Source of the DNA: Escherichia coli
Lineage (GTDB): Bacteria; Pseudomonadota; Gammaproteobacteria; Enterobacterales; Enterobacteriaceae
Direction: 5' to 3' (one strand)
NCBI RefSeq assembly: GCF_003334765.1
Contig: NZ_QOWT01000055.1
DNA: 13,955 nt
Part shown: one piece after another, positions 13,748 to 13,955 of the stretch
How positions within the stretch are numbered: the stretch's first letter is position 1
Layout: each line of letters starts with the position of its first letter
Translations under genes and position numbers: made by a program
The notes under the pieces: model-generated
What the model saw: the letters and a program-made list of their open reading frames with translations, nothing else
Databases searched by the model: none
Told to the model about the DNA's origin: nothing

Positions 13748-13955
13748 TTATACTTCATAAAGGGCAGGCCAGATGACATCAGGCGCGGTGCTGGTATCTG
13801 TTGCCGCCACCGCGTCAATGTAATCCAGCACAGCGTTAAGCCGGGTGGTTTCTGCCTGCGTCAGCTTCCGCCCGGCCTGTAATTTCAGCTGAATCAGACT
13901 GATGGAAGCCATTGCAGCATCAATCAGCGACTGGCGCTTTACTTCTGCCGCGTCT
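13748..13955 (-). CDS. Phage tail fiber assembly protein (Tfa-like), C-terminal portion; 5' end beyond the window
   Basis: Reverse-strand translation …DAAEVKRQSLIDAAMASISLIQLKLQAGRKLTQAETTRLNAVLDYIDAVAATDTSTAPDVIWPALYEV* with TAA at 13748-13750; C-terminal pattern typical of Tfa chaperones as I recall them. Confidence 0.6.
   Translation of the reverse strand, partial: DAAEVKRQSLIDAAMASISLIQLKLQAGRKLTQAETTRLNAVLDYIDAVAATDTSTAPDVIWPALYEV

Follow-up and report, generated by a model that had tools for sequence, protein, structure and literature searches.

A probable orphan tail fibre assembly gene in a degraded 6.66-kb prophage at the sbcB locus of Escherichia coli

The right edge of a 13,955-nucleotide stretch of Escherichia coli DNA (contig NZ_QOWT01000055.1, hereafter the window) contains the 3' end of tfa, a tail fibre assembly gene of the lambda type, which very probably survives as an orphan in a degraded prophage of 6.66 kb. 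As comparison with complete relatives shows, the ancestor of this element was a temperate myovirus related to SfV, e14 and CPS-53, which a tyrosine integrase had inserted into codons 12-16 of sbcB. One or more internal deletions then removed about 29 kb, as counted on a complete relative at the same site, from the interior of the fibre gene to the immunity region, and the lost genes include those for baseplate, tail, head, terminase, lysis, antiterminator, replication and repressor, as well as yfdP and yfdQ. What is left is an att core, a non-coding end, a cargo gene, tfa, a fibre stub of 102 codons, a fusion ORF of 95 aa and a frameshifted ORF, followed by yfdR, a yfdS-like gene, yfdT, the genes of an AlpA-type excisionase and of the integrase, a second att core and sbcB.

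The tfa fragment is located at positions 13748-13955 on the minus strand and was assigned from its translation, PHROG, the RefSeq CDS and Pfam, which agree with the first-pass annotation of a Tfa C-terminus in a reverse-strand frame at exactly these coordinates. It shows 68 open codons and a TAA stop, whose complement is found at 13748-13750, and the frame exits the window through its right edge. The translation is DAAEVKRQSLIDAAMASISLIQLKLQAGRKLTQAETTRLNAVLDYIDAVAATDTSTAPDVIWPALYEV followed by the stop, also given as ending in KRQSLIDAAMASISLIQLKLQAGRKLTQAETTRLNAVLDYIDAVAATDTSTAPDVIWPALYEV and the stop. The 68 residues alone match phrog_3792 (E=8.8e-25), phrog_105 (E=2.6e-22) and phrog_188 (E=4.9e-18), and since these are tail fibre assembly matches, the ORF is not a chance one. 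The final 2,956 nt of the window occur with 100% identity in E. coli BE2-5 and TC_EC10, in which the fragment is the 3' end of a RefSeq CDS encoding a tail fiber assembly protein of 197 aa (WP_000805577.1); there are no mismatches between the fragment and the tfa CDS at positions 28603-29196 of locus L002, and the 5' portion of the gene outside the window is 386 nt. The full-length protein matches phrog_105 (E=1.6e-80) and, in residues 76-193, the Pfam family Caudo_TAP (PF02413, E=7e-25), and its precomputed Pfam domains are Caudo_TAP_N and Caudo_TAP. The gene is, then, already annotated in RefSeq as a tail fibre assembly protein, and its biology is already known. The Tfa sequence has no match among all PDB chains, even at E<=1, and NCBIfam contains no model for Tfa, the fibre stub, the cargo ORF or the excisionase. 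A scan of 11500-13955 for promoters and terminators detected no terminators, and promoter-like sites were fewer there than in shuffled sequence.

In an intact phage, Tfa is an intermolecular chaperone whose N-terminal domain contacts the distal tip of the cognate fibre. Tfa proteins are modular: fibre binding is a function of a variable N-terminal domain, and trimerisation is mediated by a conserved helical domain at the C-terminus (PMC9608196), and the 197-aa protein appears to show the same architecture, a conserved C-terminal domain joined to a variable N-terminal one. A chaperone activity in fibre trimerisation would follow from its membership in this family (PMC9608196). The 68 residues contained in the window correspond, as judged by alignment, to the conserved C-terminal domain, and because this is the generic part of the protein, the fibre that it once served cannot be identified from them. 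The first-pass annotation had proposed an alignment with the Tfa proteins of the lambda, P2 and Mu families: lambda Tfa is 35% identical over 189 residues (E=1e-32), and pairwise BLASTP against P2 gpG (E=0.41) and Mu U (E=0.36) is not significant, so that the relationship stands for lambda and, for P2 and Mu, at the level of the Pfam family only. In a multiple alignment, P2 gpG and Mu U have the same C-terminal D-T-x-x-x-P...W-P pattern as Tfa, and the C-terminal motif D-T-S-T-A-P-D-x-x-W-P of lambda Tfa (orf-194) and Caudo_TAP is also present in it. When lambda Tfa, P2 G, Mu U and U', and an e14-type TfaE were compared, the N-terminal half aligned only with the lambda and e14 types; the e14-type TfaE of another E. 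coli is 61% identical overall, with a nearly identical C-terminal half. These alignments place the protein among the lambda- and e14-type Tfa, with a kinship to P2 and Mu only at Pfam-family level. TfaMu of phage Mu (PDB 5YVQ) has the same modular architecture, of which the window contains the conserved C-terminal part (PMC9608196), but pairwise similarity to Mu U is not detectable and the comparison was made by sequence only.

At the DNA level, matches to phage records are confined to positions 13765-13955, which are 91-95% identical to the tfa genes of P2-like, Klebsiella and lambdoid HK106 phages, and by BLAST this segment also matches an e14-type tfaE. The final 17 nt of the gene (13748-13764), coding for PALYEV and the stop, are outside the 91-95% stretch, and other phage tfa genes end with PELPEA and the stop, or similar. 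The extreme 3' end of tfa (13748-13764) seems to be a small mosaic boundary.

At the left side of the insert, the homology to the uninterrupted dacD-sbcB region of E. coli K-12 covers the intergenic DNA, then the initial 49 nt of sbcB (11522-11570, plus strand), and ends at 11570. This segment, delimited by the K-12 dacD-sbcB annotation, BLAST and sequence comparison, is the native 5' end of sbcB, with its first 16 codons MMNDGKQQSTFLFHDY, and is displaced from the rest of the gene, which bears out the junction inside sbcB recognised in the first-pass annotation. The longest common substring of both junctions is an exact 13-bp att core, TTTCACGATTACG, at 11558-11570, which recurs at the other end of the insert, within an intact sbcB; in the extended att repeat (11547-11570), 21 of 24 positions match. 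Because the 13-mer recurs at the far end within an intact sbcB, the element is integrated in codons 12-16 of sbcB, with a substitute 5' end. The gene is a recognised prophage integration site (PMC8309913). As a consequence for the host gene, integration splits sbcB after codon 16: the native 5' stub stays beside dacD, and the phage provides a substitute promoter region and 5' end (L002 33052-33097). The SbcB N-terminus is MTGTDKQPTFLF... in the strains with the remnant and MMNDGKQQSTFLF... in K-12, and the protein is one residue shorter in the former (474 vs 475 aa).

The tail module had been described as abutting this junction, but the junction and tfa are separated by a non-coding phage end of about 1 kb and a low-GC cargo gene of 1.08 kb, and the module therefore does not abut it. 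The non-coding dacD-side end of the prophage remnant (11571-12549) was delimited by BLAST against three loci (L003, L004 and L005). Its first 460-530 nt past the att core, from 11571 to approximately 12030-12096, are common to unrelated complete prophages integrated here, P22-like and Mu-tail-like. Further on, 11902-11959 is similar to the 3' end of the argW-phage integrase gene, intS, some of the database matches bear the label intS, and the alignment with the complete argW prophage of strain 1217KP begins at window-equivalent 11902, within the intS 3' end. An intS-like piece in a phage of sbcB suggests that the cargo-tfa-fibre module has been exchanged between phages of different integration sites.

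The cargo (moron) gene, taken from the ORF list, extends from 12550 to 13629 on the plus strand, convergent with tfa, shows a GC content of 30% and encodes a polytopic membrane protein of 359 aa with about 10 hydrophobic segments or transmembrane helices. The RefSeq version is shorter, 271 aa, with its start at window position 12814. No family was found for this protein in Pfam, PHROG or NCBIfam; Pfam searches with the single sequence and with the alignment gave nothing except a weak GT87 match of one member, and tblastn against 50,697 phage records gave no match. Among 1.84 billion representative proteins, 69 detectable relatives were found. An AlphaFold2 model built from 48 relatives (pLDDT 92.7, pTM 0.91) resembles glycosyltransferases of the GT-C fold that use lipid-linked sugars: the best structural matches of this predicted structure are ArnT (probability 1.0), followed by OST and ALG9, and TM-scores of up to 0.84 were obtained with RgtA/B/C/D-like, EpsG and Wzy models. 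Residues D38, N86, P121, R158, D159, R238, G259, R303 and Y304 are invariant in the 48 relatives. Distant homologues adjoin genes encoding a Wzx-type flippase and GT11 and GT2 proteins in polysaccharide clusters, whereas the two closest homologues (P0002 and P0004) are carried by short contigs. Where the remnant has its cargo gene, the complete sbcB prophage of strain GDSC2239PM has gtrABC. Judging from the model and this context, the gene probably encodes a glycosyltransferase-like protein for the conversion of the O-antigen or surface polysaccharide. The retention in the remnant of a membrane glycosyltransferase-like gene of lysogenic-conversion type, from an uncharacterised family, is a minor point of value.

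The region to the right of position 13955 was inferred from genomes that agree fully (100% identity) with the final 2,956 nt of the window. Four genomes were read rightward (BE2-5, TC_EC10, JCH8249 and WP2-W18-ESBL-10) and share the same gene order. Past the window edge tfa continues to its start, and a 3' stub of the fibre gene, a fusion ORF of 95 aa and a frameshifted ORF come after it; these are followed by yfdR, a yfdS-like gene, yfdT, the genes encoding an AlpA-type excisionase and a tyrosine integrase, and an intact sbcB. The full insert is 6,659 bp, with the 13-bp direct repeat at its ends. The fibre stub, of 309 bp, contains the last 102 codons, is annotated as a pseudogene and matches the C-terminal parts of tail fibre profiles. 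The DNA of yfdR, the yfdS-like gene and yfdT is 95.6% identical to K-12. Both the excisionase and the integrase are intact, the latter with 392-397 aa and a match to phrog_1 (E=1.6e-73), so that, as in a complete prophage, an integrase and flanking att repeats are present. No genes for terminase, portal, capsid, sheath, tube, tape measure, baseplate, lysis, repressor or replication were found in the insert in four loci (L001, L002, L007 and L008), and terminase, portal, capsid, tail and baseplate genes are also absent in 10 further contexts. Some copies of the remnant contain additional insertion sequences: an IS21-type element replaces yfdR in one locus (L010), and IS3-type and IS256-type elements truncate the integrase gene in two others (L013 and L016). 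These insertions show that the element is still decaying.

At least 80% of the window segment 11300-13955 is present in 73 of the 5,426 complete E. coli genomes, and at least 80% of the 6,659-bp insert is found in one piece in 73 genomes, the two sets being equated by their count and by the listed examples; the next-best cover of the insert is 40% or less and does not include the cargo-tfa part. The low-GC segment is present in 74 genomes, in all of them with at least 99% identity, and the 74th is strain 1217KP. The exact 197-aa Tfa was found in public assemblies in 10 distinct contexts (31 contigs read), and all 10 are the remnant.

This distribution bears on whether a complete tail and late module, belonging to a full-length and possibly inducible prophage that extends rightward, could begin at tfa. 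Complete prophages with the same site and orientation, and with the tail genes nearest to dacD, do exist in other strains, with a Mu-like tail (L003), P22-like (L004) or a myovirus (L028, strain GDSC2239PM), and the same cargo and tfa module is carried by the complete argW prophage of 1217KP, so that the picture drawn in the first-pass annotation, of a late region continuing beyond the window, does fit intact relatives at this site. In the genomes that share the junction, however, nothing structural was found past the 309-bp fibre stub (0 of 73), nor in the contexts of the exact Tfa protein (0 of 10), and of the tail fibre and other structural genes to the right, whose absence that annotation had named as refuting its claim, only the stub was found, which essentially contradicts the continuation. 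The window fragment is moreover the allele of the remnant, with no mismatches to it and two to the complete-phage allele of 1217KP, and the latter is at argW but the window shows the sbcB junction. A full-length prophage to the right is for these reasons very unlikely.

The degraded prophage is best understood from its complete relatives. Strain GDSC2239PM contains, at the same sbcB site, a complete myovirus prophage of roughly 40 kb whose excisionase (WP_000132739.1) is the same protein as in the BE2-5 copy of the remnant, and whose dacD-side end shows the fibre gene, tfa, an IS5, gtrC, gtrB and gtrA. The remnant is collinear with it, with 97.9% identity in the int-xis end and 97.4% in yfdR, but shows a gap of 29.4 kb from within the fibre gene to the early-left region, which includes the repressor/immunity, replication and lysis modules, all absent from the insert. 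The complete prophage that strain 1217KP carries at argW measures about 37 kb; the remnant forms three collinear blocks with it, and its cargo, tfa and fibre module is 98.9% identical to that of the remnant. The gene order of this prophage is intS, cargo, tfa, fibre, YmfQ, baseplate, tape measure, sheath, capsid, portal and terminase, followed by lysis, Q, replication, repressor, yfdPQRST and torI. The fibre gene of this prophage is full, with 251 aa, and ends at the start of tfa, and it is its last 102 codons that the remnant keeps at that position; in the complete relatives tfa is thus directly 3' of the fibre gene, in the same orientation. The deletion junction is at 29505/29506 of L002, approximately 695 nt past the window edge, and yfdP and yfdQ are also lost from the remnant. 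The prophages of GDSC2239PM and 1217KP, both similar to SfV and e14, therefore have in common with the remnant a collinear backbone, but the remnant is short of about 29-30 kb that both of them still carry, with genes for immunity, replication, lysis, head, tail and baseplate. As in a cryptic remnant, the insert is collinear with complete phages except for internal deletions and contains a fibre pseudogene, a frameshifted ORF and a fusion ORF. Its tailed-phage origin, set against an IS or a small island in the first-pass annotation, holds with respect to the IS, but a length of 6,659 bp is that of a small island.

With regard to function, lambda Tfa differs from the protein described here in its surroundings: here only the last 102 codons of the cognate fibre gene persist and the late operon is gone, which leaves the chaperone orphaned. 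Because the fibre partner is truncated and the late operon deleted, Tfa would be functionally idle, with no virion to serve, and it is probably non-functional although the tfa ORF, the integrase and the excisionase are intact. The opposite could be argued from these intact genes, namely that the 6.66-kb element is a still-mobile or excisable mini-element in which tfa and the glycosyltransferase-like gene are maintained by selection for their function. The integrase, the AlpA-type excisionase and the 13-bp repeats are intact, as are the tfa and cargo ORFs, whose conservation in 74 genomes is at least 99%; in such an element the enzyme would alter the surface polysaccharide of the host and Tfa would complement or recombine with incoming or helper phages, in a satellite-like or host-range-donor role. 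The conservation of at least 99%, however, fits a recent clonal descent and gives no evidence of selection, and the element is collinear with complete phages through simple deletions and shows the fibre pseudogene, the fusion ORF and the frameshifted ORF. Several copies are also disrupted by IS, including in int (L010, L013 and L016), and the insert contains no replication, packaging or interference genes. A maintained mini-element is accordingly very unlikely.

There is scarcely any likelihood that tfa is an arm of an invertible Pin/Gin-type segment for host-range switching. Such an arrangement is found at the same site in the prophage with the Mu-like tail (L003), in which a homologous C-terminal tfa sequence is inverted, in a segment beside pinE with two opposed tfa genes. 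The insert of the remnant, however, shows neither an invertase nor a second opposed tfa (L001, L002, L007 and L008), and the gene convergent with tfa encodes an unrelated membrane protein. The invertible segment was rejected because the insert lacks an invertase.

Elsewhere in the window, a separate deletion was observed. The window is devoid of 2,855 bp at 3852/3853 that the nearest complete genomes carry (L002 15853-18708), a loss that removes a gene encoding a patatin-like phospholipase and two hypothetical genes. The junction lies in an in-frame fusion ORF of 467 aa (3064-4467, plus strand), which contains the first 263 aa of an RdcB-family protein and the last 205 aa of a DUF932 protein. 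The same RdcB-DUF932 fusion protein is present on one public contig (GCA_965137835.1, CBCSCR010000062.1), which ends at window-equivalent 12437, before tfa.

The degraded sbcB prophage is of the same kind as CPS-53 (KpLE1) of K-12, a decayed SfV/e14-like prophage at argW. CPS-53 also keeps its integrase, the gtrABS cassette for surface-polysaccharide conversion, the Tfa-type genes tfaS and yfdK, and the fibre fragment yfdL. The remnant differs from it in its site, sbcB and not argW, in its integrase, in a single low-GC GT-C-like gene instead of gtrABS, and in its smaller size (6.66 kb). A Tfa C-terminus at the edge of a sequence does not imply a live prophage beyond it, and in this case it marks a stub of 6.7 kb from which about 29 kb are missing. 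The C-terminal DNA of tfa shows 91-95% identity with many P2-like and lambdoid phages; through shared sequence of this type, defective prophages can recombine with incoming phages, and the residual role of the gene would be, at most, that of a homology reservoir for such recombination.
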